The notes under the pieces: model-generated
Told to the model about the DNA's origin: nothing
Databases searched by the model: none
What the model saw: the letters and a program-made list of their open reading frames with translations, nothing else
Made by a program: the position numbers and the translations under genes
IMG/VR virus record: IMGVR_UViG_3300045988_176686
Source: a virus
DNA: 64,000 nucleotides
Direction: 5' to 3' (one strand)
In this document: positions 40,301 to 56,981 of the stretch, piece by piece
How positions within the stretch are numbered: position 1 is the stretch's first letter
Layout of the letters: each line of letters opens with the position of its first letter

Positions 40301-41064
40301 CAACCACATGAACCTTGTGGTGCTATAACATCAGTAGCGAAGCAAACAAAAAGTGGATTCCACGGCGTGCCATAAATGACCTCGCTCACTTGCTTTCCTT
40401 CTCGCACTACGTTAGGTAGCGTAACACTATCAACGGCATAAATGCGGAAATCTTTGTTGAGCATGTCGGTGGAAAAGTCCTTGCCAAAACCAAAAGTAGG
40501 AATGCCTTTTACCAACGTGACCTCACAACCGAGTGCGGCAAGTTCTTGCGGATTAAAATCCATCTTAGGCATGAACGAGAAGGTGTCTATCGTCTGCGGT
40601 GCAATGGTGCGGTAGTCCATTTTGCCAAACAACATTGGGAACACCGCACGCGTTTCATCAGTGTCGCCATATACCCGAACCACCAAGTCTTTGCACAATC
40701 GCAACAAACTGGCTCCGTGCATAGGCAAATTGCGCATGGCAGCATAAAGTTCTAAAGTACCATAGCCTTGCTTGCCTGTTTTTGTACACATCCAGCGCAC
40801 GGCTCCGTGCTTGGCTTGCGTATCGCCATCAACCCCTACCCCATTGTAAAGACCGCCACGCTCATCATTGTAGATAATGAAGTGCGGTGTCTTTCCTGCC
40901 TTTGCCTTATCGTCGGTCGGGACATCGGCATCCTCGGTCCCCTTCTTTTGGCAGAAGGGACAGAAACACGCGGTCTGACCTTCAAAATGCTGTTCCTCGG
41001 CTGGCTTCACAAGGTAAGTCAGCGGGAGGTTTGCAAGACGATTGATAATTGGGTGGAATTGCAT
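37375..41064 (-). CDS. primase-helicase (SF3 / D5-P4-like NTPase with a primase-like N-region)
   Basis: 1229 aa. A zinc-finger-like CFCPFCQKKG lies near the N-terminus. Walker A (ATGGSGKSW) and a Walker B-like motif (FRVVHWEDKP) lie in the C-terminal third. The protein ends in EEDLPF. Confidence 0.7.
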   Translation of the reverse strand: MQFHPIINRLANLPLTYLVKPAEEQHFEGQTACFCPFCQKKGTEDADVPTDDKAKAGKTPHFIIYNDERGGLYNGVGVDGDTQAKHGAVRWMCTKTGKQGYGTLELYAAMRNLPMHGASLLRLCKDLVVRVYGDTDETRAVFPMLFGKMDYRTIAPQTIDTFSFMPKMDFNPQELAALGCEVTLVKGIPTFGFGKDFSTDMLNKDFRIYAVDSVTLPNVVREGKQVSEVIYGTPWNPLFVCFATDVIAPQGSCGCLFRPAMKGDPIVFSTCDDHSVRKVSRWLMGDKVFTYAMDNRDSASTAVHAAIDKFDPNEQYSDTRDIWVENETKDGEPKGTFRLEQEKIKPSDVKARNIVFCRTPEDAISVYYAMRSLRIDKEHDPHFQKFCWYHVAFSIGRRNFFYIDRGQWRQEKLDFNAIQYQKMKRFAERIIMLYPNDIASQRDCGAIATKYSDLFYAMLPEAFRSRYNQRWQWLYGCSPRSVRDYMIAYRMTDEDNFKFDHDLRIPLYSRLRGAKNTDPFEIEYPRDPRSGKPKPPTCKVSPSKVWLFMSAHGYYRMIDPESTDLVGQYIHLDRCFVEYIESNSIIQAMKNLLLEFIEQCWRHNDLEQRLMSDCANMVDKTFTEKSAGGLLSMVIDFADAFNAKTEYFYFRNMALKITPDAIIPVNYDNINFFIPALARKPYDFTMRVFKPPFAIRESQEYIDKKKSIEAKEAMRNEDDSPVFSIIEVGQMKAELAEWAQTYRWQVDWNGKREQDLWPSLRIIRGCANTLWEKEQDSIRKKQQMSEDDIAVINSHFVNLISGIGRVCFRTWDKMENVCPYLLEDSIPDEKQATGGSGKSWVINTFVGAAVNVFSVDMRHFKDIGDARFVLTDIIKYPGKFRVVHWEDKPRSFPLDYFYVQITGGTSAERKNSDAVSFKMKDSPLHVITSNYPLSDDASSTIGRFPLVSFSNRFARENPQKRQPARMMSDLMKGFSKNPEDLSDTDRNQIIYICALAVQFLMRYHTFAIAPQENVRRRQMVQKLTENIVNYFEWFFSQSEIYGVPICTDEMFNDFLRNWADASEGKSKEYSRATFKKKIYDYCENMGITCNPKHLFENDADKHRKCFKLQAWVTQEYFVGREWENDKTVSPKYIRYLQTSKHVFFFYRPGKDKVPKDYKELKSIARKFAEQPDLLPCRDEDGKIVKLTDEEQTRWDNFMSRKQGKRIVISNNENQVAQSVAQIKEEDLPF

Positions 41065-41073
41065 AAAGGATTA

Positions 41074-41499
41074 TTATAAATTTAGGAAAGTTTCGAGCCT
41101 GTAATGCCGAATGGCACAGTTGCAAATATTCCTAATGTGTGCTATTAGTAACAAAGTAAATTCCTTAAATGAGATAAAGTGTTCGTTAAGGTTTATCACG
41201 CTCACGGCATAACGCCAATAACATTTGCCATTCTTGTGTCGGCACGAATGCTCTAACTTTATTTTCAAGTCTCTTACATTTCCACACATCGTTTTGTGAA
41301 TGTGGCAACAAGCGTCCTTTAGCAAGGCAAAGGGTGCGCCATAAAACAAGAGGGTCGGTATTTCGTCCTCATTGCCTCGCATGGTTTCGGTGTACGCAAT
41401 GCGGTGCAGATATTCGTGAATGATGGGACGACCCTTATCTTTTTTTCTATCCCTCAGATTGGGAATGTAAGGAGAAAAAATATGACGATTATTTGACAT
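41074..41499 (-). CDS. hypothetical protein
   Basis: 141-aa Cys/His-rich ORF. Confidence 0.55.
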   Translation of the reverse strand: MSNNRHIFSPYIPNLRDRKKDKGRPIIHEYLHRIAYTETMRGNEDEIPTLLFYGAPFALLKDACCHIHKTMCGNVRDLKIKLEHSCRHKNGKCYWRYAVSVINLNEHFISFKEFTLLLIAHIRNICNCAIRHYRLETFLNL

Positions 41500-41508
41500 A
41501 ACTAAGCG

Positions 41509-42171
41509 TTATTGCTCGTGATTGGACAAACAACTGACGTACTTCATCATTTGCCAAGTATTATGAATGCTTCTTTTGCAATCATACAAGGGGTCGTGTG
41601 CAGCACCTGGTGCTTCGTAAGCGTCTACCAAGTCATAAGCCTTGTCGGGTGTAAACTCTGCACCAGACATTTTGCATATTTGAGCTACACTCTCCATGAA
41701 GAATGTGCGGTGGTCGCGGAAGTTTTGATGACTGATGGGAATTTCGATTTGGTATTTATAGCAAATGTTTCGCAAAATAGCCATGTCGTAATCTGTACCT
41801 TGACACCAAAGATTTACCTCGGTTGCTTTACATGCTCGTTTCACATAGTCGATCCAGCAGAAGAAGTCTTTCATTACTTCTTGAATAGGAGAGCAAGGCG
41901 AACCCTCGTTATCCTCGTCCAATACCGCGGCTTTGGCTTCGTCGCTACGTTTTGACCACCATTTAGCGGTGGTAGCATCGAACGTAAAGCCATCTATAAA
42001 CATTCCGCGTAAGTCTACATGCTCTGAAAACATGGGATAAACGATTGGTTTTCTTTCGTCAAAAAATGGGGTATCTTCTCCATTTCGATTCCACGCAACT
42101 GCCCCAATGCTCATGACAGCAGCTGTGGGGCGTAGCGAACAAGTCTCTAAGTCGAAGGTTATATCAATCAT
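41509..42171 (-). CDS. DEDD-family 3'-5' exonuclease (DnaQ-like)
   Basis: The N-terminal MIDITFDLETCS is Exo I (DxE). The C-terminal AAHDPLYDCKRS is Exo III (H-x4-D). Confidence 0.7.
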   Translation of the reverse strand: MIDITFDLETCSLRPTAAVMSIGAVAWNRNGEDTPFFDERKPIVYPMFSEHVDLRGMFIDGFTFDATTAKWWSKRSDEAKAAVLDEDNEGSPCSPIQEVMKDFFCWIDYVKRACKATEVNLWCQGTDYDMAILRNICYKYQIEIPISHQNFRDHRTFFMESVAQICKMSGAEFTPDKAYDLVDAYEAPGAAHDPLYDCKRSIHNTWQMMKYVSCLSNHEQ

Positions 42172-44109: not shown

Positions 44110-44409
44110 CTATTTAGCTCGACAATAAATGACGGGTTCTCCGCATTCGTCATTACGCATTTTAAAACCGCGCATTTCAAGTTCTTGCAGGTAGAGCGAC
44201 AAGGGGTCGCCCAACGGACAAACCACGGCTTTAAAATAAGTGCGTAATTGGTAATCGGTAAACACATCGCAATCTTCCGTCCAATGGTCCTGCGGTTTGT
44301 ACTGATTGCAAAATGCTTGTATTTTAGATGGAATTACAAAGTCTTGCAGCGTAACCTCTGCTTTTTCGCTGACTTCATAATCTTGTTGGTGTCTCTTGCT
44401 CATAATCAC
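44110..44409 (-). CDS. hypothetical protein
   Basis: 99-aa ORF. Its start codon shares 1 nt with the stop codon of the upstream lipoprotein gene. Confidence 0.55.
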   Translation of the reverse strand: MIMSKRHQQDYEVSEKAEVTLQDFVIPSKIQAFCNQYKPQDHWTEDCDVFTDYQLRTYFKAVVCPLGDPLSLYLQELEMRGFKMRNDECGEPVIYCRAK

Positions 44410-44996
44410 TAATGTTTTTTGTCATACTGAAAAGCCCATATCAACAAGCAAAAGAACACGACCATTAAAAGGATTCCCTTTGCTCTCCCCCACCCTATTA
44501 TTGGTTTTATGTTCGAGGTGTTTTTTTCAGCAACATTGTTGATACTATCATGCTTCGTCAGGGACTTTTCGTTGGCATTTAAATTGTTTTTTCTTTCACG
44601 GCTCAAACTGTCTATGTATTGTTTCAATGATTGTACTTGATGAAGGAACGAGCCATCAACTTGTGCTTGTTTGGCACGATTACCCTTGCGCTGAATGGTG
44701 CGATTAGTCTTGATGGTTTTATTACCCTCAGTGTCGTAGGTTTCGGTAATTTGCTCCGTAATGGTTTCTTCGCTTGTGTCGGTTTCGCAAACGTCTGCCG
44801 AAAAATGTGTGCTATCGGTTAGGGTGGTGGTTGTGGAACCTTTCTGCACCTCTACCACCTTTGCGCTATCGGCAATAGACAAGGAGGTGCTATCCTCAGT
44901 AACGGTTGACACATGATGCTCTGTTGTGCGTGATGAAACACAAGCAGTGAATAAAAAGACGGACAATAACGTCAAGAATGAAATTGTTTTGTACAT
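44409..44996 (-). CDS. putative lipoprotein with a C-terminal TM helix
   Basis: MYKTISFLTLLSVFLFTAC is a signal peptide with a lipobox Cys. The middle is Ser/Thr-rich. The C-terminal helix is GILLMVVFFCLLIWAF. Confidence 0.65.
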   Translation of the reverse strand: MYKTISFLTLLSVFLFTACVSSRTTEHHVSTVTEDSTSLSIADSAKVVEVQKGSTTTTLTDSTHFSADVCETDTSEETITEQITETYDTEGNKTIKTNRTIQRKGNRAKQAQVDGSFLHQVQSLKQYIDSLSRERKNNLNANEKSLTKHDSINNVAEKNTSNIKPIIGWGRAKGILLMVVFFCLLIWAFQYDKKH

Positions 44997-45021
44997 ATTC
45001 GTTTTGTTTTAAATGATAGGG

Positions 45022-45029
45022 CAAAAATA
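45022..45029 (-). promoter_or_regulatory. Bacteroidota-type -7 box (TATTTTTG on the minus strand)
   Basis: Plus strand reads CAAAAATA, about 26 nt upstream of the ATG at 44996. Confidence 0.4.
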
Positions 45030-45064
45030 AGGCATTCATGGCGAAGGGTACGGACAAACACAAA

Positions 45065-45096
45065 ACACCGCACTACCCTTGCGGATAATGCGGTGT
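45065..45096 (-). terminator. rho-independent terminator
   Basis: The minus strand reads ACACCGCA-16 nt-TGCGGTGT followed by TTTTGTGTTTG, downstream of the stop at 45122. Confidence 0.6.
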
Positions 45097-45121
45097 AATT
45101 GAAAAGAACAGATTTTATTCG

Positions 45122-45922
45122 TTATTTTTTACGCCAGCCCCAACCCCTTTGTGCGTTCTCCTCAGAGAAAAACTCTATCGAATCATCATTTCGCACATAA
45201 ATGAATGAATGCTGCTGCGTGTTGGGATGAAGGAAATGGGTAAAGGTTACATGCCCATTCTTTGTTGTATAAGTGGTTGTAAAGTCTACACCTTCACTCT
45301 CGGCTACGAACCTAACATTTCCTTTTTTATTGAGCGTTATAGTGAAGCCGACGGGTGTATTTTCTCTATAAGCAGTCATTTCCCATGTACCATGTAGGGC
45401 TTTGTCGTGAGCAGATGCGTCGGTGTAGTCTGTAAAAGTGCGTTTTTTAGCCCCATATTCTTCAGTATGTTCCAAATAGTGGGTTTCACCAATAGAATCC
45501 GTACAGGTTACTCGGTCTACATTACTCGCAAGATCGGTCACAGTGAGCGTCCCGTAAAGTCGGTTATTTATATTAGGCTCTTTATACGTTCCAACCGTAA
45601 ACGTGGTTAAAAGGTTATCTCCAGCCGTATTCCATGTTCCGAAATAATAAACATTATCGTAAGTAAGCATACCTGAGACTAATTTACCCGAACTACTAAA
45701 ACTCATTACAAGGTGGTTGCGAAAGAATGAATATTGGGTATCAGTTTTATCCATAAAATTGTTTTTAAAAAACCACCGTTTGCCATACAGATAGTTTTCG
45801 ATTGCTATGGGGTTAACACCATTAGCCCCGTCTCCATCGCCACTGCAAGAGGTTAAGCCTACACACAAGCCTATACTTACCAATATGGCCATAGCACTAT
45901 TTATTAGATACTTCCTTGTCAT
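45122..45922 (-). CDS. putative lipoprotein
   Basis: From the ATG at 45922 the protein begins MTRKYLINSAMAILVSIGLCVGLTSCSGDG, a signal peptide with a lipobox. The longer track ORF would overlap the rep gene. Confidence 0.65.
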   Translation of the reverse strand: MTRKYLINSAMAILVSIGLCVGLTSCSGDGDGANGVNPIAIENYLYGKRWFFKNNFMDKTDTQYSFFRNHLVMSFSSSGKLVSGMLTYDNVYYFGTWNTAGDNLLTTFTVGTYKEPNINNRLYGTLTVTDLASNVDRVTCTDSIGETHYLEHTEEYGAKKRTFTDYTDASAHDKALHGTWEMTAYRENTPVGFTITLNKKGNVRFVAESEGVDFTTTYTTKNGHVTFTHFLHPNTQQHSFIYVRNDDSIEFFSEENAQRGWGWRKK

Positions 45923-45944
45923 GTATTTTCTATTTTCAAATGTT

Positions 45945-47138
45945 CTACTTAACACCACGCACTAAAACGCGAGCGGCAGCCTTTCCTATAAAGCTTGCTA
46001 AGGTACGCATCATCTTGTCGTACTCATTTTTGTTTGCAGGCTTTTCGCATTCGGCATTAAAACTTTCGAGCGTCTGTTTATCGTCAAAACGAATTGACAT
46101 AAAACCTGCTGCATTCGCTCCATAATGTTTTGCTTTTAAAAGCCAAGGTTTGAAGAAGCCTTCATATTGCGCTAAGAACTTATTCCACTCATCAGCATAT
46201 TTTCCAGGGTAATCCTCAATAATGGGTTCTTGTCGTTTCTTTTCTTCTTCTTGTTTAGCAAAAAGTGATGATTGATAAGCTTCAGGATTGGTGGCTTTCT
46301 GCATTTCGTCTATTGTGCCGTAGATATTGAAACGAATGAAAGCCGGGTTGCCCACTTTACGTTTGCCATTGTAGACAGGTTCAAAACTTACGCACACATC
46401 AAGCAAACCCTTTCGTTTTAAACGGTTGATGTCATCAATGCTTGTTTCAATTACCTTTTTGCGAAATTGCGAATACTTAGGATAAGCCTCTTTCAGCACA
46501 CGTCCGTCTGCCCAAGTAATCATGCCAAGGTATTCCTTAATTTTGTTTACGGTAAGGTCTACGGTGCGCTTGTTCCATTTATGCCCACTACTTACGCGCA
46601 ACAAATAGTAAATCATGGGCATGCGCTCCACTTCACCAATTAGAGCTATATTGTCGGGATGCGACACATAATCTTGCGACATATCAAACACGCGGTCAAC
46701 CACATCGGGGTTAAGTCCAAACACCACACCTGTATTATTGTCAGACGACATGGAACCTTGCGTAAATACATTGTATTTTATCATCGCATCCTTGCCATTC
46801 TCATCTTTGCCTGGTGCATCTACTTGTATTTTCAACACCTCCTCTACGGCTTTCGCTGCCGAATAGTAATTGTTGATGGAAACACCTAACTCAGCATAGG
46901 AGATACTGAATTGCAAAATACCCGAATTTTTTACAGCTTCAGAAAATAAGCCTCTTGGAACCTTTTTAGATTTGCATAAATCAGATCCAAAAAATTCTTT
47001 GATATAAGGTTGCAAATGTTCTGATACCTTTACCAACACGGCTTGTTGCAAGAGTGTAAGATTTTTGCTGATCCTTGTATAAGAGAATGGCGTGTTTATC
47101 CAATTCGATTGTATTATATCTTTACTATCCATGACCAT
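45945..47138 (-). CDS. plasmid-type replication initiator (Rep_3/RepB-like, tentative)
   Basis: 397 aa. The N-terminal NWINTPFSYTRISKNLTLLQQAVLVKVSEHL resembles the Rep_3 pattern (SNxLxxAxYxLSLxEqRl). The gene directly abuts an iteron array and an AT-rich stretch. Confidence 0.6.
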   Translation of the reverse strand: MVMDSKDIIQSNWINTPFSYTRISKNLTLLQQAVLVKVSEHLQPYIKEFFGSDLCKSKKVPRGLFSEAVKNSGILQFSISYAELGVSINNYYSAAKAVEEVLKIQVDAPGKDENGKDAMIKYNVFTQGSMSSDNNTGVVFGLNPDVVDRVFDMSQDYVSHPDNIALIGEVERMPMIYYLLRVSSGHKWNKRTVDLTVNKIKEYLGMITWADGRVLKEAYPKYSQFRKKVIETSIDDINRLKRKGLLDVCVSFEPVYNGKRKVGNPAFIRFNIYGTIDEMQKATNPEAYQSSLFAKQEEEKKRQEPIIEDYPGKYADEWNKFLAQYEGFFKPWLLKAKHYGANAAGFMSIRFDDKQTLESFNAECEKPANKNEYDKMMRTLASFIGKAAARVLVRGVK

Positions 47139-47153
47139 TTTTGTTTAGTCAGC

Positions 47154-47635
47154 AGGTAAAGTGATACTAAAATAGTTTACCTGCTTAGTACCTATTTAGG
47201 TAAACTGGTACTAAAGTAGTTTACCGCGCAACTTCCTAAACTGTTGATTTTCAGTGATTATACACCCACCTATAATATAAATATAAAGAGAAACATATTT
47301 TTTCCTATATTCTTTATATTAAATAAGAAGGGTAAACTACCTTAGTAAATAGGTAAACTACTTTAGTACCAGTTTACCTGTTTTATTGCATTTGGGTAAA
47401 CTACCTTAGTACCTGTTTACATTTTGCACTTTTAGGTAAACTACTTTAGTAGCAGTTTACCTTACTTATTCTTCTATTAGAAAAACTCATAAGGTAAACT
47501 GCTACTAAAGTAGTTTACCTTACTTATTCTTCTATTAGAAAAACTCATAAGGTAAACTGCTACTAAAGTAGTTTACCTTACTTATTCTTCTATTAGAAAA
47601 ATTCATGAGGTAAACTGCTACTAAAGTAGTTTACC
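47154..47635. repeat. origin-like iteron array (at least 8 copies of a 27-bp dyad iteron, including 3 perfect 58-bp tandem units)
   Basis: GGTAAACTGCTACTAAAGTAGTTTACC and variants occur in both orientations at about 47154, 47198, 47352, 47395, 47435, 47493, 47551 and 47609. The 58-bp units span 47462-47519, 47520-47577 and 47578-47635. An AT-rich block lies at 47270-47330. Confidence 0.85.
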
Positions 47636-47677
47636 TTCTCCATTCGTGTGATTTTCTACGAACGCGATAACAACAAG

Positions 47678-48241
47678 TTAAAGATCATCATAGTTCTTAT
47701 TCTCGCTTTTCTTAAAATTCTCAACATCGCCATAGAACAGACTGATGAGATATTTTCTTTGAAGAATGCCATCTGGTCTTATTAACTTCTGCATAATAAT
47801 GCCTAACATTTTCTTTTCTTCAGCGTCAGGCACATAGAATTGAAAACCTTCTGGATCGCCATCACTATTCTTCAGTACATCAACAACGGCCTTGGAGTAT
47901 TTCTCCTTTAACTGTTTTAGGATGTTAGCAAATGGTGTTTTTGCCAATTCGAGAGAAGAATAATCCATAGAGACTTCCACCGCAAACACGTTTTTGTCTT
48001 TAGGATTAAAGAATATCATGAACTCAGAGTCCTCACCCATGAACAAACCTTTATATATTTTCACGCCAGAAGGAGAAGCCTTTGTTTTAGCTACATCACA
48101 AGTAAGACCTTTAGCTTTCAACTTCTGCGTAAACAACTCTACGTTGCCATTCAAGGGAATGCCCATGAATTTCATGTGTGTCTGTCCTTGCACAATCATG
48201 CAGAACAAAGACAGCAATAAGGTAACTATTGTCTTTTTCAT
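47678..48241 (-). CDS. secreted hypothetical protein
   Basis: From the ATG at 48241 the protein begins MKKTIVTLLLSLFCMIVQGQ, a signal peptide. It is the last gene of the par operon. Confidence 0.6.
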   Translation of the reverse strand: MKKTIVTLLLSLFCMIVQGQTHMKFMGIPLNGNVELFTQKLKAKGLTCDVAKTKASPSGVKIYKGLFMGEDSEFMIFFNPKDKNVFAVEVSMDYSSLELAKTPFANILKQLKEKYSKAVVDVLKNSDGDPEGFQFYVPDAEEKKMLGIIMQKLIRPDGILQRKYLISLFYGDVENFKKSENKNYDDL

Positions 48242-48254
48242 TGTCGTATAGAAT

Positions 48255-48638
48255 TTAGTCGTTCTTATGCTTATCCACGAACTCAATAACTGCTTGCAAT
48301 GCCAAGTCGCGAATAGGTATGCCCGTTCGCATTTTCATGAGCGTAATGCGTTCGTAGTATTCCATGGGGACTGAAATGGTAATGCCGTTCTCAGACTTCT
48401 TAGGACGCGCCTTACTAATTGGTGCAGCGTTTGAAAATGAAGTAGTTTGCGCTGGTGTTGTCTGCTCTTGCTGTGGCTGAACGGGCGCCATTGCTTGCTG
48501 CTGAACATCTGTGGTTGGTTGGGTTACTTGTTGCTCGGTTGCGGTTGTTGGATTATTTAATATACGTTCATTCTCTGCCACAACGGGAGAGGCTTCAAGA
48601 TTGAATGGTGTGAACTTGCGTTCTTGTTTTCGTGCCAT
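48255..48638 (-). CDS. ribbon-helix-helix partition/centromere-binding protein (ParG/ParB-like adaptor, tentative)
   Basis: 127 aa with a disordered Gln/Thr/Pro-rich N-half. The C-terminal ITISVPMEYYERITLMKMRTGIPIRDLALQAVIEFV fits a strand-helix-helix pattern. It lies immediately downstream of parA. Confidence 0.55.
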   Translation of the reverse strand: MARKQERKFTPFNLEASPVVAENERILNNPTTATEQQVTQPTTDVQQQAMAPVQPQQEQTTPAQTTSFSNAAPISKARPKKSENGITISVPMEYYERITLMKMRTGIPIRDLALQAVIEFVDKHKND

Positions 48639-48672
48639 GTCAGTGATTGTTTATAGTCATTATAACGAGTGA

Positions 48673-49545
48673 TTATTCGGGCATGCTTTCAAGTATCTCT
48701 TCTGTAAACTTCTTATAGTCCAGCCCTACCCTACTATAAGGTGCATACGTAAAGATGTCCTCGTTCATAGCCTGCGCTTCTACCATCTTGGTATCTCTGC
48801 GCGTATAGGCATCGAACATGTAGTCATCAAACTTCTCGCCTAAATATTGTTTGAACTGCTTGGTCGCATTGGTTTGGTCGTTACTCATTACCATCAACAA
48901 ACCGCGAATATCAAGGTTAGGATTTAGATCCTCGCGTGTTTCCTTCACTGCATTGATGATTTCAGCAATACCTTTGGTGGCCAGCATCTCCAACTGCACC
49001 GGCAATACCACACTGGTGGCAGCGGTCAGCGCATTGTGTGTGAGCAATGACATGGCCGGAGGACAATCTATCAGCACATAATCAAATGCTTCGGTCACAT
49101 TCATTGTACCTTCATCAGCCAACTCGGTACCTTGCATCTCTATTAAAGGTTTACCCAACAATTTACAAAGTGCTTTGCGTGGCACCGCCATTTGGTTTAG
49201 GAATGGTTCTATGCCTATTAATCGTCCTGATGCCGGAGCAAGGTATATGCCCTCTCGCACTTGATATACGGGGATTTGCCCTTGTTGTACCAGGGCATCA
49301 TACATAGTCGGCTTGCCCATTTGCTGTGTTTCGCTCCAACCAAAGAGGAATGAAGCACACGCCTGTGGGTCAAGGTCGATAATCAATATACGCGGAACGC
49401 GTCTCTTCCCTTCTACGTCTACACCAAAGAAACCTTTACCGAACCGACGTAAACCGGTTGCAAGGTTCTGCACTGTTGTGGTCTTGCCTACCCCACCTTT
49501 GTGGTTGACGAAGGCAAGCACTTCTCTGAGTCTTTCTGTTGCCAT
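48673..49545 (-). CDS. parA: ParA/Soj-type partition ATPase
   Basis: The deviant Walker A is VNHKGGVGKTTTVQNLA, followed by IIDLDPQ and DYVLIDCPP. Confidence 0.9.
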   Translation of the reverse strand: MATERLREVLAFVNHKGGVGKTTTVQNLATGLRRFGKGFFGVDVEGKRRVPRILIIDLDPQACASFLFGWSETQQMGKPTMYDALVQQGQIPVYQVREGIYLAPASGRLIGIEPFLNQMAVPRKALCKLLGKPLIEMQGTELADEGTMNVTEAFDYVLIDCPPAMSLLTHNALTAATSVVLPVQLEMLATKGIAEIINAVKETREDLNPNLDIRGLLMVMSNDQTNATKQFKQYLGEKFDDYMFDAYTRRDTKMVEAQAMNEDIFTYAPYSRVGLDYKKFTEEILESMPE

Positions 49546-49559
49546 AAATCCAAGTATTA

Positions 49560-49875
49560 AAAAGTTTAATTGTTCGTTTGTTCAAATGTTCAAACAAACA
49601 ATTAAACATTTGAACAAACAAATATTCAAACAAATGAATATTTGTTTCTTGCTGCAAATTTAAGATTTGTATATTACACCACAAAACAAAACGTTCATTT
49701 ATTTATATAAACAATCAAATAAACATTAAAACAAATGAACAAATATACGTTTCAACGAACATACAAATAAACAAACGTGTAATTGAATAAATATTTGAAT
49801 GTTCAAACAAACAAATAAACAAATACACAAATGTTCATTTGTTGAAATGTTTGTTTGTTCATTTCAATAAATAAA
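49560..49875. repeat. centromere/operator-like repeat field upstream of parA
   Basis: There are more than 10 copies of TGTTCAAAC / ATGTTCATTTG-type motifs in both orientations. Interleaved inverted repeats include GTTTAATTGTTCGTTTG with CAAACAAACAATTAAAC, and CAAATATTCA with TGAATATTTG. Confidence 0.65.
49655..49662 (-). promoter_or_regulatory. Bacteroidota-type -7 box (TAAATTTG on the minus strand) for the par operon
   Basis: Plus strand reads GCTGCAAATTTAA, the same extended block as at 176-188. It is flanked by the 10-bp inverted repeat CAAATATTCA/TGAATATTTG. Confidence 0.45.
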
Positions 49876-49878
49876 CAT

Positions 49879-50424
49879 TTAATTATTCCATTTGTCGTTT
49901 ACATCAATCGTTATTTTGTCAGTTTGGCTATTTAATAGTTCAGTACGTATAGGCAAAATGCAGTAATTTGTTTTCATTCCAGCCTTCACGATTGTGCCAT
50001 TCGGTACGTACGTGTAGTAGTTTCCCGTGCCGAAAAGTTTTGAGCCTATTTGTGTCTTTCTGTCCGCTGGAGTGTCGTAGCACAGAATGCGTTGCCCACT
50101 TTGCCAATATCCTTCAGGTAGAGAGATATTTCGCAAAACGGCAAAAACTTCTAATTTCGTAGGCATTCTATAATGAGGGTCTTCTATCAGTTTCGATGGA
50201 GTGGGGGAGGTTGAGAGCATGACGTTACATATCTCCGTACAAGACAGGTAAAAGCGAGCTGTATCATTGGTGGCTATCAATGTATCAACCTTTGCAGCAT
50301 CATTACCAGGCAATGAGGGGGTGGTGTCATCTATATCTTTTGGAAAATCCAGCTCTCCACATCCAAACACCGAAAGCAGAATAAAAATAGGATACGAAAA
50401 AAAACAGTGATTATTTTGAGCCAT
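49879..50424 (-). CDS. putative lipoprotein
   Basis: The N-terminal FFSYPIFILLSVFGCGE is a signal peptide with a lipobox Cys. Confidence 0.6.
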   Translation of the reverse strand: MAQNNHCFFSYPIFILLSVFGCGELDFPKDIDDTTPSLPGNDAAKVDTLIATNDTARFYLSCTEICNVMLSTSPTPSKLIEDPHYRMPTKLEVFAVLRNISLPEGYWQSGQRILCYDTPADRKTQIGSKLFGTGNYYTYVPNGTIVKAGMKTNYCILPIRTELLNSQTDKITIDVNDKWNN

Positions 50425-50505: not shown

Positions 50506-51462
50506 TTAAATGTTTATGTCATAGCCTGTATCGTCCCAAGCATCATTGAGTGAAATGGAAAAACCTTGATTGTGGTTGTAGAACGATCCGGTAATGGTAG
50601 TTGTCTTGTTACGCTCGAAGTGTACATTCGGTACGGTTATCGATGAATAGGGCGTTCCTGATTTACTGTTGGTGGTAAAAGTAATGTCCGTTGTATAGCC
50701 ATCAGCAGGCACCATCACGTAATAAGTGAGTGTAGTGCCGGTAGTACCAGCTAACGACGAAACGTCCGTGGTACGCTGATTTTTCATGGCGTTCATCACG
50801 TCGAATGTCTGTAAAGAGAAATCTTTATATTCTTGAAATGAAGCGTCCCATGTGCTGCAATCCGTTGGAAAAACATCTGTACTTTTTACAATCATACGAG
50901 CCACTAAACGATCCAGTGTAAGATTTACCATTTGTGCTTCGCCGATCCCCACCACAATGTCACGTTGTGCGCCAAAGGTGTCTGAGGTCTTAGCAGAAGA
51001 AAGGAGGGCAGGGATAGTTGCACCCGAAACAGGTGTAAGCACGTTGGCAGGTAACTCCCATGATGCCGAGGTCGCATCCAATAGAGTAGGGGAGGTGCTT
51101 CGCGTAGCTATCACTTTTAGTGTGTGTTCGCCATAATCGAGCATCAAATCAGGTTCAGCAAAATCTGCTGCCGTGCTCGTTTGGTGCAGCACCTGTAACA
51201 ATTTACCAGACTTCTTGTCGTAGTCCATAATGTAAAGGTCGGTCAACTCTGTGCCATTTGCCGTGAGGGTAGCTCGCGAATGTGGCGCAGCATGGTGCAA
51301 CGTCAATCCATTACTCGTGCCACACTTCAAGCGTACATGCGCTTTGCCGTGGGTAGGCTGATTAGTCACTAACTCTGTAAAAGAGCCTTCGTTGTCGTTT
51401 GAACATGATGCACTCATGCAAAGAGCCATTATTGCAATGACCGCAAAAAATAAATTTCTCAT
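50506..51462 (-). CDS. putative lipoprotein (possibly fimbrillin-like)
   Basis: MRNLFFAVIAIMALCMSASCSNDNEG is a signal peptide with a lipobox. The 318-aa protein is Thr/Ser-rich with beta-type composition. The fimbrillin resemblance is only an impression. Confidence 0.6.
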   Translation of the reverse strand: MRNLFFAVIAIMALCMSASCSNDNEGSFTELVTNQPTHGKAHVRLKCGTSNGLTLHHAAPHSRATLTANGTELTDLYIMDYDKKSGKLLQVLHQTSTAADFAEPDLMLDYGEHTLKVIATRSTSPTLLDATSASWELPANVLTPVSGATIPALLSSAKTSDTFGAQRDIVVGIGEAQMVNLTLDRLVARMIVKSTDVFPTDCSTWDASFQEYKDFSLQTFDVMNAMKNQRTTDVSSLAGTTGTTLTYYVMVPADGYTTDITFTTNSKSGTPYSSITVPNVHFERNKTTTITGSFYNHNQGFSISLNDAWDDTGYDINI

Positions 51463-51515: not shown

Positions 51516-53309
51516 TTAGGGTAATAGGGGAGGAGGTAAAGAGAAGGTATGCACATTCTTTTGTGTCGATCGTCCGCTACTTGCCGGCATGCGCTTGTTT
51601 TGTACGTTCGTGTGACAAGCCACACCACACCGCCTCACAATCAGCAAAGGATAGTTTATAGGTTGTAGCACGGATAATGGCACAGATCGCACAATACATG
51701 GCTTTTCGGTGTGGTTTTCTTCCGCACATACATTCACAGTTGGCTTTGCTGTTTCCGTTTCCGCACATACATTCACCACTTGCTCTGCTGTTTCCTTGCA
51801 TACATTCACCTGTGGCTTTTCGTTCGCTACTGCTTCCGTAGATTGTTCCTTCACCTTCAAAGTTTTATTGAAAAGTTTTTCCAATTTTACGCCCTCCCTA
51901 TAAAAGAACGCGCAGCCACGATAACTATTCGACTTGTTGCGTTTCTCTTCAGGCATGAAAGTTTTACAAAAACCCGATAACGTGTAGGTATTGCCTTCAA
52001 ACGATACCTTATTGTCATCTACCGCAACAACCTCCTTGCCATCTACAAAGGTTAGTTTGTCACCAGACTTCACCCCTATTGCTGCAAAGGTAAATTTGCG
52101 CGAAGGGTCAACTTGCTTTACCGTTGTGGGCTTATCTACTTTTTTAGCAACAGTCTTTTTTGCCGTAGAATCCTTGCTCGATACAACCTTAGTAGTACGT
52201 TTCACATTTAGTACGTAACGCTCTAAAACATTTATATCACATTCCACGTTAGGAGCTACTAACACATCGTCCACATGCTCACCCACAAAGGTTTGGTCTT
52301 CTTCAACCTTTGGGCATAAAACATACACATTGCCGTTATTGTCAACTGCTTCTACATATTTACTGTCTTCTGTACCTAAATACAAGCACATGCTTTCGGC
52401 TTTTTTGATTATACCAAATCGCTCAGCATCAAACAATAAGCAAAAACTATGCTTCAACTCCTTGCCTGCCTCTACTTGCGCTTCACAATCACCTGCTTTA
52501 AATTGAATGGTATTGTCGCCACGTTTACCACAAACGACAATATTCTCTCCCTTACCCATTTTTACAAGTTTGCAAATAGTCTTCCAGTTGGAGACATTCA
52601 CGCACAATTCAGACGAACGCTCCACACAAACGGAGTACCATTTTACTAAAACGCATTCGTGCTTTGCACGTGCAGCAATACCTTCAAACATAATATTGGT
52701 GCAAACATCATAGTCCATGCGTTCTTTCGTCGCGGTCATTTGGTAAATATTCTTACCTTTCATTTTCGCGCACATTTTCTTAAAGTCTGCTGCCAAAATG
52801 CGCATACCCGAAGTGTCACCCTTTATATTACTAAAAGCAACAGGACACACTTTCATACTACGGCCATTTGTAGCGACTAAGCATTTACGCTTGGCATCAA
52901 TGAAAATAAAAGCATAAGCCGGATTCCAGAACTTAGGGTCGGTAAAATCGCACAACTCTCCCAACTCCTTAGTGACGGCAAAGGTTACACTGGCTTCTAC
53001 CTCACCTTTGTTTTCAGCCACGAACAAATGGCGTTTACTGCCCACACCTACCAATAACTCGAATTTTGCCACAAGATCGAAAATTTGGTTTGTTGGGAAT
53101 GCACAACGGAAATTGCCTACCTCCACATGGTGCAAATTGTTAGCGTCCTCTCTTTCAAAAAACATATCATTACCCATGTGTTTTGGTGAATTAATCTCAC
53201 GTGCTGTAAAACTACCCACAACGTCGTATCTACGCATCAATGGCCAAACCTCGTCCGCTATCTTGTACAGTTCATTCAATATAGCCGTATTCAATTCTTT
53301 GTCAGTCAT
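51516..53309 (-). CDS. hypothetical large protein with internal VNVC(A/K)E tandem repeats
   Basis: 598 aa from the ATG at 53309 (MTDKELNTAIL). The track's longer N-terminus overlaps a small hydrophobic ORF. RKCLVATNGRSMKV weakly recalls the clamp motif VATDGHRL. Three 11-13-aa repeats are encoded at 51719-51830. Confidence 0.6.
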   Translation of the reverse strand: MTDKELNTAILNELYKIADEVWPLMRRYDVVGSFTAREINSPKHMGNDMFFEREDANNLHHVEVGNFRCAFPTNQIFDLVAKFELLVGVGSKRHLFVAENKGEVEASVTFAVTKELGELCDFTDPKFWNPAYAFIFIDAKRKCLVATNGRSMKVCPVAFSNIKGDTSGMRILAADFKKMCAKMKGKNIYQMTATKERMDYDVCTNIMFEGIAARAKHECVLVKWYSVCVERSSELCVNVSNWKTICKLVKMGKGENIVVCGKRGDNTIQFKAGDCEAQVEAGKELKHSFCLLFDAERFGIIKKAESMCLYLGTEDSKYVEAVDNNGNVYVLCPKVEEDQTFVGEHVDDVLVAPNVECDINVLERYVLNVKRTTKVVSSKDSTAKKTVAKKVDKPTTVKQVDPSRKFTFAAIGVKSGDKLTFVDGKEVVAVDDNKVSFEGNTYTLSGFCKTFMPEEKRNKSNSYRGCAFFYREGVKLEKLFNKTLKVKEQSTEAVANEKPQVNVCKETAEQVVNVCAETETAKPTVNVCAEENHTEKPCIVRSVPLSVLQPINYPLLIVRRCGVACHTNVQNKRMPASSGRSTQKNVHTFSLPPPLLP

Positions 53310-53386
53310 AACTATGTATCGTATTAAAATGTTTTTTGTTTCGTTGTGGGGATAGTGAATTTTCGCTATCCCCATAACATGAGTAT

Positions 53387-53515
53387 CTATTTTGCCGTGA
53401 ATGCTCCACCAATTAAAGGCAGAAGGAACACGCCTACACCTATTAACGAGAATAACACCACACACACGCAAGCCACTACCAATGCACCGATGATATACTT
53501 AATAATCTTTTTCAT
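53387..53515 (-). CDS. small hydrophobic peptide (42 aa)
   Basis: The ATG at 53515 gives MKKIIKYIIGALVVACVCVVLFSLIGVGVFLLPLIGGAFTAK, with two TM-like segments, 3 nt after the upstream stop. Confidence 0.35.
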   Translation of the reverse strand: MKKIIKYIIGALVVACVCVVLFSLIGVGVFLLPLIGGAFTAK

Positions 53516-53518
53516 AAA

Positions 53519-54058
53519 TTACACAGCTTGTTTAAATGCACGAATGTCTTCTGCAATGTCGTAAATATCTAAATCGTAAATAACGCCATCAAAAATAATA
53601 CCGCTAAGAGCTTCGTTCAACTTGTCAGGGTCGCCAAAGTCCTCCTCATTAAGGTAGGCTTCATCTTCTAAGTAAGCATCAAAATCCCTAATAAAGTCAC
53701 GGATCACGGTGCGCAGGTCTATTGCCCATTCGCTGTTGTCGTCAGGTCGGATGCCGATTGATTTGCACGCTACGCTTGTAACTTCGTCAAGCGGCATTCT
53801 GCTTTTGATGTATGCGTTGAAATAGAAGTCGAAACGGATAATCTCATCGAGCATCCAGCCGTTCGGTTCGTTGATAGCTGCCATGTGCCCACCGCCTACA
53901 ATGTACCCCATGCGCTCGCCAGGCTTTTTGTCAGATAAGGTTCTGGCAATTACGCCACGTTCGTTGAGTCGTTCAACATAAACATCGCCATTATAAACGA
54001 TGCTGTTTGAGTTATTTACACGCTGAATGTTATTTCTAAAAGTTGTCATAATCTGCAA
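53519..54058 (-). CDS. hypothetical acidic protein
   Basis: 179-aa ORF whose C-terminal half is rich in Asp/Glu. Confidence 0.6.
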   Translation of the reverse strand: MQIMTTFRNNIQRVNNSNSIVYNGDVYVERLNERGVIARTLSDKKPGERMGYIVGGGHMAAINEPNGWMLDEIIRFDFYFNAYIKSRMPLDEVTSVACKSIGIRPDDNSEWAIDLRTVIRDFIRDFDAYLEDEAYLNEEDFGDPDKLNEALSGIIFDGVIYDLDIYDIAEDIRAFKQAV

Positions 54059-54096
54059 GTATTAAAATGTTTATTTTTATGTTTTGAAGTTGTTTT

Positions 54097-54351
54097 TTAC
54101 ATGTCTGATAGAACCCAAAGTCTAACCAAACCTTCCACATCATTTGTGGCAATTAAAAGCAAAAGGTTAGCTGCTGCTCCAATATACCTCCGTTGTTCTT
54201 TTTCGGGTAATTGAGCAATGTTTTTGCTGTTGAACCAATCACGCACTGCTTCTAAACTACCTCGTGATACGCCATCAAACATATCCAGTTCAATAGTAGC
54301 CAGCGTGTCTTCGCTAATTTGCATTCTGTTCTCGTTCATATCAATAGACAA
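54097..54351 (-). CDS. hypothetical protein (start uncertain)
   Basis: 84-aa ORF with a TTG start in the track. An ATG at 54386 preceded by the conserved AAAAAACGACT leader would join this frame if the T7 run at 54366-54372 were T8. Confidence 0.5.
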   Translation of the reverse strand: MSIDMNENRMQISEDTLATIELDMFDGVSRGSLEAVRDWFNSKNIAQLPEKEQRRYIGAAANLLLLIATNDVEGLVRLWVLSDM

Positions 54352-54428
54352 ACGAGTAGCAATAATTTTTTTAAACGTTCTCTCATTTTAGTCGTTTTTT
54401 AAAGGTTCTATAATAACTTCATTTTTTC

Positions 54429-54953
54429 TTAACTATTGTGTTTCCCTGTCGAAATTTCAACATATCCACGCACTTTAGCATTTCCCATAATAATCGCGTT
54501 GCCGCGTACTGTTGCTTTTTCGCAAACAAGCGCATTGCTATATACCTGTGCCTTGTCACGTACACATGCTTCACCGCACACACACGCATTGCCTGCAATC
54601 TCAGCTTGGTCCATAACAGTTGCATTGCCTGCAAGGTGAGCATTGCCTAACAATTTTGCACTACCACCAACGAATGCTCTGTTACACACATGCGCATGAT
54701 CCGTAACGACGGCACATCCGAACACTTGTGCATGTCCGCTCACCCTTGCATGGTCGCACACGATGCTGTTCCCATACACACACGCATTGTCCGCAATCCA
54801 GGCTTTGCCAAACAAGTTTTCAGTTGACTCAACAAATCCTCCTAATTCGCCTGCTTTCACCTCGTCGAAAGGCTCAACACACGCTATGCGATGAAGCACA
54901 TGCTTGTCAATTGTGATTGTTTCATCCGTCAGGACGTATCTAATAGTTCTCAT
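54429..54953 (-). CDS. repeat protein, probably beta-helix (hexapeptide/bactofilin-like)
   Basis: 174 aa. The run GNAHLAGNATVMDQAEIAGNACVCGEACVRDKAQVYSNALVCEKATVRGNAIIMGNAKVRG shows short periodic (G/S)NAxV repeats. Confidence 0.6.
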   Translation of the reverse strand: MRTIRYVLTDETITIDKHVLHRIACVEPFDEVKAGELGGFVESTENLFGKAWIADNACVYGNSIVCDHARVSGHAQVFGCAVVTDHAHVCNRAFVGGSAKLLGNAHLAGNATVMDQAEIAGNACVCGEACVRDKAQVYSNALVCEKATVRGNAIIMGNAKVRGYVEISTGKHNS

Positions 54954-54987
54954 TTTCAGTCGTTTTTTTGATAGTCTATAACAAGGT

Positions 54988-55425
54988 TTACTTCAGTTCT
55001 AACGATACACCAAGCGCATCAGCAATCTTGTCCAGTACGTCAATTCCAACGGAATACTTTCCTTCCTCAACTCTGCATACATTTGCTTTGGTGATGTCGG
55101 CAGCTGTGGCGAGTTCTTGTTGTGTCATATCGCGTTGAAGTCGAATACTTTTTATACGTTTTCCAATAGCGGAACGTATTCCGCGATTTTCGCGTTCACA
55201 CGCAAACGATAAATCCGAGTAGAAGTCTTGCAGCTCCTCGTCGCTTGATTGAGAGAATAGCTCGTCAAACAGATCCGCCAACTTGCTACCGCCATAATTG
55301 TAGCATTGATTGGCGTAATCATCATACGGAATGTCTACAGACTGATCCCAGTTGTCCTTATTCCATGCAGCCACACATGCTACGCATTCTTTGATTATAG
55401 CTGCTTGTAAATTTGTCTTTTCCAT
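54988..55425 (-). CDS. XRE-family HTH protein with an N-terminal accessory domain
   Basis: The C-terminal IGKRIKSIRLQRDMTQQELATAADITKANVCRVEEGKYSVGIDVLDKIADALGVSL is a Cro/C1-type HTH. Confidence 0.75.
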   Translation of the reverse strand: MEKTNLQAAIIKECVACVAAWNKDNWDQSVDIPYDDYANQCYNYGGSKLADLFDELFSQSSDEELQDFYSDLSFACERENRGIRSAIGKRIKSIRLQRDMTQQELATAADITKANVCRVEEGKYSVGIDVLDKIADALGVSLELK

Positions 55426-55429
55426 TTTT

Positions 55430-56131
55430 TTATTTGTCGTTAAAATTCATGTTCATTCTTGCCTTATCCTTCACTTCGCTCCGATCGATAAGCCCTAATT
55501 CAGCTTCGTGCCTATATTCGTCGAGTAGGTGCTCATAGTTAGAGTTATTGTGACGGTGAGAGGCTTGTATAATAGCAATAGCATGCTGCTCATCTTCTAT
55601 ACGTCTAAGAGGATTTTCTCGCTCCATTGTGCGTATAAGTGTTGCACGCTTCGTGCTATAATTGTCGTATTGCTTGGCTTCTACTTTTTCTATTTGTTGT
55701 CGTTTGTAGTCGTTTTTTTCTTCGGCGATAGAGCGTGCAACATCCATAGTTACCCATTCATAGCCATTGCAATTAGCCAATAGTCTCACTAATCGCTTAG
55801 CCCATGTATCGCGCACCTGCGTCCATATCTTTACCGTTTTAAGCTTTGTTGCTTTTCCTTCTACTAATTTTAGGAAATCCTTCTCTGAATTTAAGAAGAA
55901 ATTGTTGAACTTGTCTTGATAGCCAAAACCATTCCAATTCTCCCCATAATGTTCTTCATACACTTTATGGGTCGAGATGTATTCTTTAATTTTACCGCGC
56001 ATGGCACCGCTCCACACTCTTCTATACACCTTCTCGTTACATATACGAAAAACGTCGTTAGGGGATTTTTTAGACGCATTGTCAATGTTGGCATAACGCG
56101 TCAAAACGTACACTGAATTATAAGTAGCCAT
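55430..56131 (-). CDS. hypothetical protein
   Basis: 233-aa ORF. Confidence 0.6.
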   Translation of the reverse strand: MATYNSVYVLTRYANIDNASKKSPNDVFRICNEKVYRRVWSGAMRGKIKEYISTHKVYEEHYGENWNGFGYQDKFNNFFLNSEKDFLKLVEGKATKLKTVKIWTQVRDTWAKRLVRLLANCNGYEWVTMDVARSIAEEKNDYKRQQIEKVEAKQYDNYSTKRATLIRTMERENPLRRIEDEQHAIAIIQASHRHNNSNYEHLLDEYRHEAELGLIDRSEVKDKARMNMNFNDK

Positions 56132-56152
56132 TGTTTCAAACCGAATTACTGG

Positions 56153-56479
56153 TCAGTCCTCGAAGATTTTTGTCCCAATTTCATGTTCGTAGACTGACCA
56201 CCAGCCCTTGCCGTTAAGACTGCCTGATGCGATAATCAAGCCATTGCTGTCCCAGACAGTGTAGGATGAGCGATTATAAGGCTGTTGGAAATGTTCGCCC
56301 CGCACAATCCTTTTTATGTCTTTAATGGCTATTGCCTTATTGGTGTATTCGTATGGTTCAGACAATATCGTAGAGCCATTGTTGGCTGAAAAACTTGCGT
56401 AATATTTCATCGCTTCAAGCCGAATTGCTGTTGCCGCCAGTTCTAAGAGTTTTTTGTGAAAATGATTTATTGTTCCCAC
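56153..56479 (-). CDS. hypothetical protein
   Basis: 108-aa ORF. Confidence 0.55.
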   Translation of the reverse strand: MGTINHFHKKLLELAATAIRLEAMKYYASFSANNGSTILSEPYEYTNKAIAIKDIKRIVRGEHFQQPYNRSSYTVWDSNGLIIASGSLNGKGWWSVYEHEIGTKIFED

Positions 56480-56531
56480 CGTGATGTCGCTTCACCTTGT
56501 GCCAGTCGTGCTGAAGTGGGTAGGCTATTTT

Positions 56532-56954: not shown

Positions 56955-56981
56955 AATCGTATTACTTATTGTTTGATATTG

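Follow-up and report, generated by a model that had tools for sequence, protein, structure and literature searches.

A candidate phage-plasmid of Prevotellaceae that combines tailed-phage genes with an iteron replicon and a ParA partition cassette

The DNA analysed here is a 64,000-nucleotide stretch of the IMG/VR virus record IMGVR_UViG_3300045988_176686 (the window), which covers about two thirds of a ~97-kb tailed-phage genome and carries, besides packaging and virion genes, a plasmid-type replication initiator, an iteron origin and a partition cassette. We regard the element as a well-supported candidate phage-plasmid of Prevotellaceae, i.e., a non-integrating ~97-kb tailed phage of Prevotella or Segatella that is kept as a low-copy circular plasmid prophage, and from its genes and assemblies we assign this reading a probability of about 0.75. 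Phage-plasmids are defined as extrachromosomal elements that unite phage and plasmid functions (PMC7969092), and the element has packaging, virion and lysis genes, a plasmid initiator with its origin and a partition system, and no detected integration module.

A phage-plasmid is the simplest reading because an origin-rep-par region and a second, phage-type replication set stand beside packaging, tail and lysis genes in a circular ~97-kb genome without a detected integrase. Both the phage and the plasmid module appear to be functional, since the ratio of nonsynonymous to synonymous substitution rates (dN/dS) is 0.13 for a 433-aa gene of the structural module, whose relatives are 67-99% identical, 0.19 (median) for the initiator Rep and 0.05 for ParA, the lowest of the genes measured, all three values indicating purifying selection.

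Replication initiator and iteron origin

The rep-par features, all of the minus strand, occupy 45945-49878 as follows.

45945-47138, minus strand: rep, initiator of 397 aa with two predicted winged-helix domains (RepE/pi-like) and a C-terminal extension of ~110 aa
47139-47640: iteron origin, directly upstream of rep
47154-47182 and 47198-47226: two proximal iterons, beginning 16 nt upstream of the rep start codon, a position kept in relatives
47262-47330: AT-rich stretch, up to 85% A+T, between the proximal and the inverted iterons, kept in relatives
47330-47462: inverted iteron set, a half iteron and three full ones
47434-47637: 58-bp tandem unit in three copies, starting at 47434, 47492 and 47550
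47678-48286, minus strand: accessory open reading frame (ORF) with a signal-peptide-like N-terminal segment, between the partition genes and the origin
48255-48638, minus strand: small partition ORF of 127 aa, starting 34 nt downstream of parA
48673-49545, minus strand: parA, 290 aa, with a KGGVGKT deviant Walker A motif near the N-terminus
49546-49878: centromere-like field, the 333 bp upstream of parA, 78% A+T

Rep belongs firmly among the iteron-binding initiators. It matched the Pfam model Rep3_C of the second winged helix (WH2, PF21205) with 21.5 bits at a cut-off of 21.1, and the same domain is precomputed on many of its homologues. By tblastn it found genes annotated as 'RepB family' or 'replication initiation protein' on five Segatella/Prevotella plasmids, with 22-33% identity and E values down to 7e-30, and a profile built from 19 Rep homologues had R6K pi (2NRA) as its best PDB match (E 0.0023), which aligned with it position by position across WH2. 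When the AlphaFold model made from the homologue alignment was searched with Foldseek, the top eight matches were all pi or RepE chains (probability 1.0, E 4e-6 to 2e-4), followed by isolated first winged-helix (WH1) domains of MSBI1.176 Rep and pPS10 RepA. With its two tandem winged-helix domains the model shows the fold of the RepE/pi family, and we take the Foldseek result as evidence for the fold family of Rep and not as a precise model. Gene callers start Rep at Met3, and it is this 395-aa form that is on record, not the 397-aa form. The Rep protein had no match among the phage records of the GenBank collection and none in the GTDB representative genomes, where the Rep alignment gave six matches, all on short contigs of metagenome-assembled genomes, two of them labelled Prevotella/Prevotellaceae and the rest probably mis-binned.

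The iteron is a 29-nt unit, AGGTAAACTGCTACTAAAGTAGTTTACCT, whose ends are mutually inverted repeats around an asymmetric centre. Eight full copies were found, five in plus orientation (47154, 47198, 47492, 47550 and 47608) and three in minus orientation (47351, 47394 and 47434), as well as a half copy at 47330-47347. The 58-bp tandem unit, whose copy number varies among relatives, supplies the identical iterons at 47492-47520, 47550-47578 and 47608-47636 and may serve in origin function or in the control of copy number. The 500 bp of the origin hold 15 of the 25 GGTAAAC/GTTTACC sites of the whole window, and the AT-rich stretch is a candidate for the DNA unwinding element of a plasmid origin.

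Across relatives the iteron sequence co-varies with Rep, which speaks for a functional origin. Relatives with a Rep 84-99% identical to that of the window have the same iteron, while in the relatives L015-L017, with 68-69% identity, the iteron reads AGGTAAAATGACTACTAATGTTTTTTACCT and the architecture is unchanged, in that the proximal pair, the AT-rich stretch and the inverted set are all kept, as are the tandem units and their spacer. More distant relatives (Rep 51-69% identical) have iterons with several different inner sequences, and 13 of 14 carry 7-17 GGTAAA cores in the 700 bp upstream of rep, against 0-1 in the control. The same GGTAAAC core is present even in the 22-bp tandem and inverted iterons, AGGTAAACGGTTTCGTAGAT, that adjoin a Rep of 31% identity on NZ_CP137558, a complete 93-kb plasmid of Segatella copri HDE06. 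In L015 and L016 the ParA is 99% identical to that of the window and the Rep only 69%, with different iterons; ParA and its flanks are 95-99% identical, and rep with the origin is the only part in which the DNA identity drops to ~65%. Since Rep and iterons have diverged while ParA has remained constant, the Rep-iteron cassette has been exchanged as a unit, which suggests selection for new incompatibility types among co-resident replicons.

Partition cassette

ParA matched Pfam AAA_31 (E 3.9e-37, from residue 8) and CbiA as well as PHROG 164, a ParA-like partition protein (E 1e-44); its match to NCBIfam ParA_partition was below the cut-off. The start of the AAA_31 match at residue 8 and the N-terminal KGGVGKT motif, with no DNA-binding domain in front of them, identify it as a short ParA of type Ib.

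The 127-aa protein encoded downstream had no family match in Pfam, PHROG or NCBIfam. The alignment of its 16 homologues shows an invariant basic N-terminal peptide, MARKQERKF..F.L....ENERIL, a linker rich in proline and glutamine (P/Q-rich) and of very variable length, and 45 C-terminal residues that are almost invariant. The C-terminal part had the ribbon-helix-helix (RHH) protein ORF56 of pRN1 as its best PDB match (E 0.085), and the profile of the protein returned only a low-complexity artefact from the PDB. In the AlphaFold2 model the C-terminus forms a strand-helix-helix (helices 92-105 and 109-123) with a predicted local distance difference test score (pLDDT) of ~90, and the Foldseek list, all with E >1, was led by the RHH proteins MatP, PutA, Arc and CopG. 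The C-terminus likely adopts an RHH fold, and the protein, which has the layout of ParG-type adaptors, is a candidate centromere-binding protein similar to ParB or ParG.

The field upstream of parA is built from ~40 ATTTGTTy-like units that recur every 8 bp and flank, on either side, a conserved core without this periodicity. Its autocorrelation at lags 8, 16 and 24 is 0.52, 0.49 and 0.49, compared with 0.34 +/- 0.024 in shuffled sequences, and the lag-8 value is the highest of any 333-bp stretch of the window, ~7 standard deviations above the background of 0.264 +/- 0.036. The core bears TAAATTTG at 49655-49662 on the strand of parA, which matches the Bacteroidota -7 promoter motif. Diverged relatives retain the 8-bp phasing (0.48-0.55) despite a different sequence. 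Type Ib centromeres, such as parH of TP228 and the omega sites of pSM19035, are made of short phased repeats that overlap the operon promoter, and the field, a putative centromere, resembles them.

The accessory ORF at 47678-48286, for which no family match was found, lies outside the maintenance machinery; the relative L019 is without it, and its small partition gene abuts the iterons.

The plasmid maintenance set proposed in the initial annotation is present at the coordinates given there and holds up under these searches, including the Rep_3-like initiator beside its iterons and AT-rich stretch, the ParA Walker ATPase and the centromere-like repeat field, and the rep and par genes do belong to plasmid families, as shown by Rep3_C, AAA_31/CbiA and the Reps of Segatella/Prevotella plasmids. 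Of the small RHH protein that was part of this set, the ORF is present and the RHH fold is consistent with the models but not proven.

Phage genes

PHROG and Pfam scans covered ~65 window ORFs of at least 100 aa. The phage genes that bear on the lifestyle of the element are listed below.

4607-10024, minus strand: tail tape measure protein, 1805 aa (PHROG 25337, E 2e-20)
11159-11761, minus strand: holin-like protein, weak match (PHROG 199, E 3e-4; Phage_holin_4_1 on a homologue, marked weak)
16735-18732, plus strand: large terminase TerL (tblastn to annotated large terminases, 31% identity, 77% coverage, E 6e-36)
35518-36702, minus strand: sliding clamp (PHROG)
37375-41064, minus strand: primase/TOPRIM-like protein, 1229 aa (tblastn to 'DNA primase/TOPRIM' of Polaribacter phage Leef_1, E 4e-14)
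41509-42171, minus strand: 3'-5' exonuclease (PHROG)
54988-55425, minus strand: Xre/cI-type helix-turn-helix (HTH) regulator (PHROG transcriptional repressor/regulator families, E 4e-14)

TerL also had a weak match to PHROG 2 and none in Pfam, NCBIfam or the PDB sequences. In PLSDB it found only one distant replicon, NZ_AP025327.1 of Fulvitalea axinellae (37.7 kb). This replicon from another Bacteroidota class, deposited as a plasmid, encodes at positions 3516-4334 a terminase homologue annotated as hypothetical (30% identity, E 4e-21), and it may be another unrecognised phage-plasmid. Homologues of the tape measure protein with 1602 and 2100 aa carry the Pfam domain PhageMin_Tail. Across syntenic relatives (including L005-L010) the length of this protein is 1602, 1805, 1810, 1910 or 2100 aa, which implies a tail-length polymorphism within the lineage.

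The phage-side replication genes at 35518-42171 on the minus strand include matches to PHROG 947 (E 1e-41) and PHROG 255 (E 1e-34), and we infer that they form a lytic replication module separate from Rep and its iterons. Within it, only the middle part of the 1229-aa protein matches the Leef_1 primase/TOPRIM, at 22% identity, and the protein had no match in Pfam, NCBIfam or the PDB sequences; it is possibly a replicative enzyme, either a divergent primase-helicase or a polymerase. The Xre-type protein, whose RstR-like and HipB-like matches in NCBIfam are below the cut-offs, is a candidate repressor for a lysogeny switch.

The part of the genome that lies outside the window was rebuilt from related contigs, and not from the exact genome, by exact look-ups of the proteins at the window ends and by scanning IMG/VR twice. 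Left of the window, it carries a primase-like gene and a gene of a PHROG family of unknown function, together with genes for guanylate kinase, ThyX and dUTPase, and next to them a co-directional module that runs into the right end of the window. This module encodes a head maturation protease of 547 aa (E 1e-21), the 433-aa protein mentioned above, an endolysin (E 7e-38), a tail protein (E 8e-112), a major-tail-like protein, and proteins of 345, 589, 413, 359, 166, 937, 352, 125, 621, 412 and 350 aa.

Circular genome map and integration genes

The genome map is circular, ~97-103 kb long and never joined to a chromosome. The 178-aa protein encoded at 388-924 was found in 337 assembly blocks, in which the longest contig was 50-200 kb in 121 cases and >200 kb in none; of the 43 blocks with Rep, 15 had a longest contig in this range, and so did 25 of the 29 blocks with a homologue of the small partition protein, again with none larger. 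Five of the six contigs listed for the 178-aa protein are full-length (95,973-102,955 bp) and come from various assemblers with differing start points, the sequence upstream of the 178-aa gene amounting to 80.1, 42.2, 71.6, 68.4 and 36.4 kb. In one IMG/VR contig (93,018 bp), Rep (13.3 kb), the 433-aa gene (71.3 kb) and the 412-aa gene (86.2 kb) follow each other on a single strand, so that this contig joins the sequences beyond both window ends. Contig ERZ961710 k127_16087 (97,205 bp) is 100% identical to the window over 52769-64000, and its end, extrapolated from coordinates, falls at ~47,470 of the window, within the iteron array. The array is the breakpoint of several other related contigs as well, and many assemblies are interrupted there. 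No host flanks were seen on the contigs of hundreds of assemblies and no contig exceeded 200 kb; together with the permuted start points, this indicates a circular map.

No integrase, recombinase or transposase family was matched by the window ORFs, and neither these nor a protelomerase was found in the ORFs of the rebuilt remainder or in the precomputed Pfam annotations of the flanks.

The element is classed among the viral contigs of IMG/VR and is present in hundreds of human gut assemblies; a nucleotide search with 45000-50000 gave no match among GenBank phages or in PLSDB.

The phage side of the initial annotation was likewise confirmed for terL and the 1805-aa tape measure protein, while the holin family that it named has an ORF with a weak match. 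Its statement that the window is free of integrases and recombinases can be extended to the rebuilt remainder, the permuted contigs without chromosomal flanks agree with the circularity that it proposed to check, and its reading of the element as an extrachromosomal prophage is supported by both gene content and assembly behaviour, most parts of its argument having become stronger.

Host

The sequence relationships make Prevotella or Segatella (Prevotellaceae) the most likely host, and the sole named homologue is a fragment from Prevotella sp. A Bacteroidota host had first been proposed from TAnnTTTG promoters. This motif occurs 74 times in the window, where 64 +/- 8 are expected, and 12 times on the right strand 10-150 nt upstream of genes, where ~5 are expected (~2.3-fold). 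As it is not enriched overall, it is weak host evidence alone, and the host, which other evidence supports, rests more on the Prevotella-labelled fragments and the Segatella plasmid relatives.

Proposed life cycle

From the behaviour of the known families, the following course can be proposed. Rep monomers would bind the 29-nt iterons on either side of the AT-rich stretch and melt the AT-rich DNA, and recruitment of the host replisome would lead to theta-type plasmid replication. The two iterons by the rep start could serve as an operator for autorepression by Rep, and the extra tandem iterons could titrate or pair Rep and so limit the copy number. The small RHH-type protein would coat the 8-bp arrays around the parA promoter, both building a partition complex and repressing the operon, its basic N-terminal peptide would stimulate the ParA ATPase, and ParA would position the plasmid copies over the nucleoid. 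The Xre-type repressor would keep the lytic genes off until induction, when the phage clamp, primase-like protein and exonuclease would replicate the genome, the terminase would package it and the cell would be lysed.

Alternative explanations

Several observations weigh against a plasmid prophage. On the side of the initiator, Rep matched in Pfam only Rep3_C, and barely, with the N-terminal Rep_3 (WH1) model unmatched at E values up to 0.1; it had no match in NCBIfam, its AlphaFold model is of medium confidence (mean pLDDT 67), the template modelling scores of the Foldseek matches are low (~0.36), and no DnaA box (TTATCCACA, at most one mismatch) was found in 47101-47700. DnaA boxes are common, not universal, in origins of the Rep_3 type. 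The RHH fold of the small partition protein is without statistical support, and neither a multimer-resolution recombinase nor a toxin-antitoxin pair was recognised. No capsid or portal gene was positively identified in the family searches. Close relatives are absent from PLSDB, the GenBank phage collection and the GTDB representative genomes, and no cultured lysogen was found. Finally, a circular map by itself fits a plasmid and a circularly permuted virion genome alike, and permuted assembly is equally expected from a virulent phage with headful packaging.

The main rival is a virulent or pseudolysogenic phage in which Rep and the iterons are the infection origin, ParA and the small protein act in positioning or regulation during infection, and no stable plasmid prophage exists. 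Circular permutation and the lack of host flanks suit such a phage equally, a large phage-type replication set with nucleotide-metabolism genes is typical of virulent phages, and no clear cI/Cro switch was recognised, as little as the toxin-antitoxin and resolution systems. We nevertheless consider it unlikely, because a complete partition cassette, here with an ATPase, an adaptor whose conserved tail is of the ATPase-stimulating type and a centromere-like array on both sides of its own promoter, pays only for a low-copy replicon inherited through cell division, and ParA is the most strongly constrained gene measured. A lytic origin would have no need of the extra tandem iterons, which are a feature of copy control, the replicon family and the iteron core are those of resident Segatella plasmids, and an Xre-type repressor is present. 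A virulent phage leaves the constrained partition cassette and the control iterons unexplained.

A plasmid carrying a defective or domesticated phage remnant, tailocin-like or similar to a gene transfer agent and without infectious virions, is quite improbable. The missing capsid and portal matches would suit it, as would the structural genes of the window being split over several strand blocks; against this stand TerL, the head protease, the tape measure, several tail proteins, the endolysin and the holin-like gene, the constraint on the 433-aa structural-module gene, the genome size held at 96-103 kb in many samples as if under a packaging constraint, and the classification of the contigs as viral in IMG/VR.

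An ordinary integrating prophage, with an integrase that is too divergent or lies in an unexamined part, would fit the many ORFs without any family match and a remainder read from related contigs, but it is very improbable given that all ORFs of at least ~100 aa round the circle were scanned or carry precomputed Pfam annotations without a recombinase, and that no contig among hundreds of assemblies is host-flanked or >200 kb while start points are permuted.

Comparison with known systems

Good documentation of phage-plasmids exists for Enterobacteria, Vibrio, Bacillus, Clostridium and Mycobacterium, and the element is a new lineage of this known kind. It resembles the P1-type phages (P1, P7 and D6) in being a ~90-100-kb tailed phage without an integrase that probably exists as a low-copy circular plasmid, with an iteron origin served by its own initiator, extra control iterons, a ParA operon with an adjacent centromere and separate lytic replication. 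It differs from them in its Bacteroidota host and in the lack of any detectable sequence relationship, either of Rep or of the region compared with the phage collection. Its ParA is of the short type Ib with a small RHH-type partner, whereas in P1 a long ParA of type Ia is paired with an HTH ParB; the searches found no resolution system of the Cre/lox kind in the element, and its tail is long and tape-measured with no sheath gene identified. A relative of P1, N15 or SSU5 was rejected for want of homology, and a linear phage-plasmid of the N15 type also because the scanned ORFs hold no protelomerase and contig starts are permuted.

The main survey of phage-plasmids contains no Bacteroidota group besides a crAssphage singleton, and its authors warn that plasmid functions are under-detected in Bacteroides (PMC7969092). 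crAssphage was later proposed to be a phage-plasmid of Bacteroidales from its plasmid-type replication genes (PMC10983915), and according to a later review repL homologues were the means by which more crAss-like phage-plasmids were sought (PMC11652158). For Bacteroidota, crAssphage is the only phage-plasmid named in the open-access papers covered (PMC7969092, PMC10983915, PMC11652158). Like the element described here, crAssphage (Carjivirus communis) is a ~97-kb prevalent phage of gut Bacteroidota that has no integrase and is proposed to be extrachromosomal (PMC10983915, PMC7969092), but it has a RepL-type gene in place of an initiator with the RepE/pi fold, an iteron origin and a ParA cassette, and its virion gene set is unrelated to the one with the 1805-aa tape measure.

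With the Rep_3 iteron plasmids (F RepE, R6K pi, pPS10 RepA and pSC101) the replicon shares the fold of two winged helices, direct and inverted iterons by rep that overlap its upstream region, an AT-rich unwinding stretch and the covariation of iteron and protein. It departs from them in that only WH2 is detectable with Pfam, in the extra C-terminal domain of ~110 aa, in the missing DnaA box, in the 29-nt iteron that is internally near-palindromic, and in its location in a phage genome. The closest outside relatives of Rep, with 28-33% identity, are found in the same host family, on elements of the Segatella copri complex (PMC10635906; NZ_CP137558, NZ_CP137560 and NZ_CP085934). These large extrachromosomal elements are similar in size, and the word 'phage' is absent from the main text of the paper (PMC10635906); unlike the phage they carry metabolic and other cargo genes and have 22-bp tandem iterons. 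An identity with such an element was rejected in spite of the related Rep, as the inspected 23 kb around the rep gene of NZ_CP137558 hold cargo genes and no phage genes.

The partition cassette is similar to the type Ib systems ParF/ParG of TP228 and delta/omega of pSM19035, in which the gene order is a small ParA with a deviant Walker A motif and then a small protein whose N-terminal tail is flexible and whose C-terminus is RHH-like, and in which the centromere, made of many short repeats phased at ~8 bp, lies upstream of the operon and overlaps its promoter. The small protein of the phage, however, has no detected similarity to ParG or omega and contains a long variable P/Q-rich linker.

Only two records of the phage collection, the Bacteroidota-associated Polaribacter phage Leef_1 and gut phage MT835542 (~37-41 kb), share both the terminase and the primase/TOPRIM-like protein, but they are less than half the size, only 20-32% identical, and no Rep homologue was detected in any phage record. 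The 'Flandersviridae' are gut Bacteroidota phages of 85-95 kb that assemble as circles and have no identifiable partition genes (PMC8008677); membership in this group was rejected, as those phages have PolA and DnaG and lack partition genes, whereas here ParA is present and no PolA was found. We found no paper in open-access text that describes the present lineage.

Significance

At slightly less than even odds, and hence tentatively, the element may be the type example of an unrecognised, globally common family of ~90-106-kb tape-measured phage-plasmids of gut Prevotellaceae, the first ones in Bacteroidota with an iteron replicon and a ParA cassette, in which the Rep-iteron unit is swapped between otherwise near-identical genomes and shares its ancestry with the replicons of the large extrachromosomal elements of Segatella. 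Should this broader proposal be true, it would point to an incompatibility-driven arms race among co-resident replicons. If the phage is indeed a plasmid prophage, Prevotella and Segatella, key but poorly tractable gut bacteria, would have a common non-integrating temperate phage, and it would be clear why integrase-based tools call such phages virulent. The origin-rep-par cassette of ~4 kb, which is apparently self-sufficient, could be tried as a stable low-copy vector for Prevotella and Segatella, and the replacement of Rep and iterons beside an unchanged ParA could provide a natural system for the study of incompatibility between phage-plasmids and resident plasmids.

Other genes and regions

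Five minus-strand ORFs around the rep-par region (44409-44996, 45122-45958, 47678-48286, 49879-50424 and 50506-51462) start, as judged by eye, with signal-peptide or lipobox-like sequences (e.g., LTSC, SASC and VFGC at the cysteine), and one of them has a weak match to DUF6562. Possibly they encode surface-protein cargo that is expressed while the element is a plasmid. An ORF of 651 aa at 51516-53471 on the minus strand (597 aa according to gene callers), which sits just upstream of the partition region, has no family match and contains a repeated ...VNVCAE/VNVCKE... peptide near its C-terminus.

Four ORFs resembling DNA methyltransferases (13120-13878, 15312-15905, 15927-16697 and 30403-31716; PHROG E 1.6e-12 to 3e-80) probably serve anti-restriction functions, and the first of them, which matches just a 57-residue piece of a methyltransferase family, may be a fragment. 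All relatives retain, beside a DUF7841 gene, the complete LysR regulator found at 2982-3887 on the plus strand (HTH_1 and LysR_substrate, E 1e-24), a kind of cargo that is unusual in a phage.

The 718-aa protein encoded at 59972-62128 on the minus strand carries the domain LPD29 ('large polyvalent protein associated') in a region with a local G+C content of 52%, compared with 43% elsewhere; it has 624 aa in the relatives L011-L013, although the rest of the neighbouring sequence of L011 is the same as in the window. Related contigs often break at the equivalent of 59-63 kb of the window. The non-coding region at 63460-63900 runs from G+C-rich palindromic pieces through a long TATATA-rich tract and a tandem 8-nt repeat CCCTCACG (~63776-63835) to GGGGAGGGGAG, and has the second-highest 8-bp periodicity in the window. 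Its equivalent in L011 sits between divergent small genes, and the region may function as an origin of lytic replication, in packaging or in regulation.

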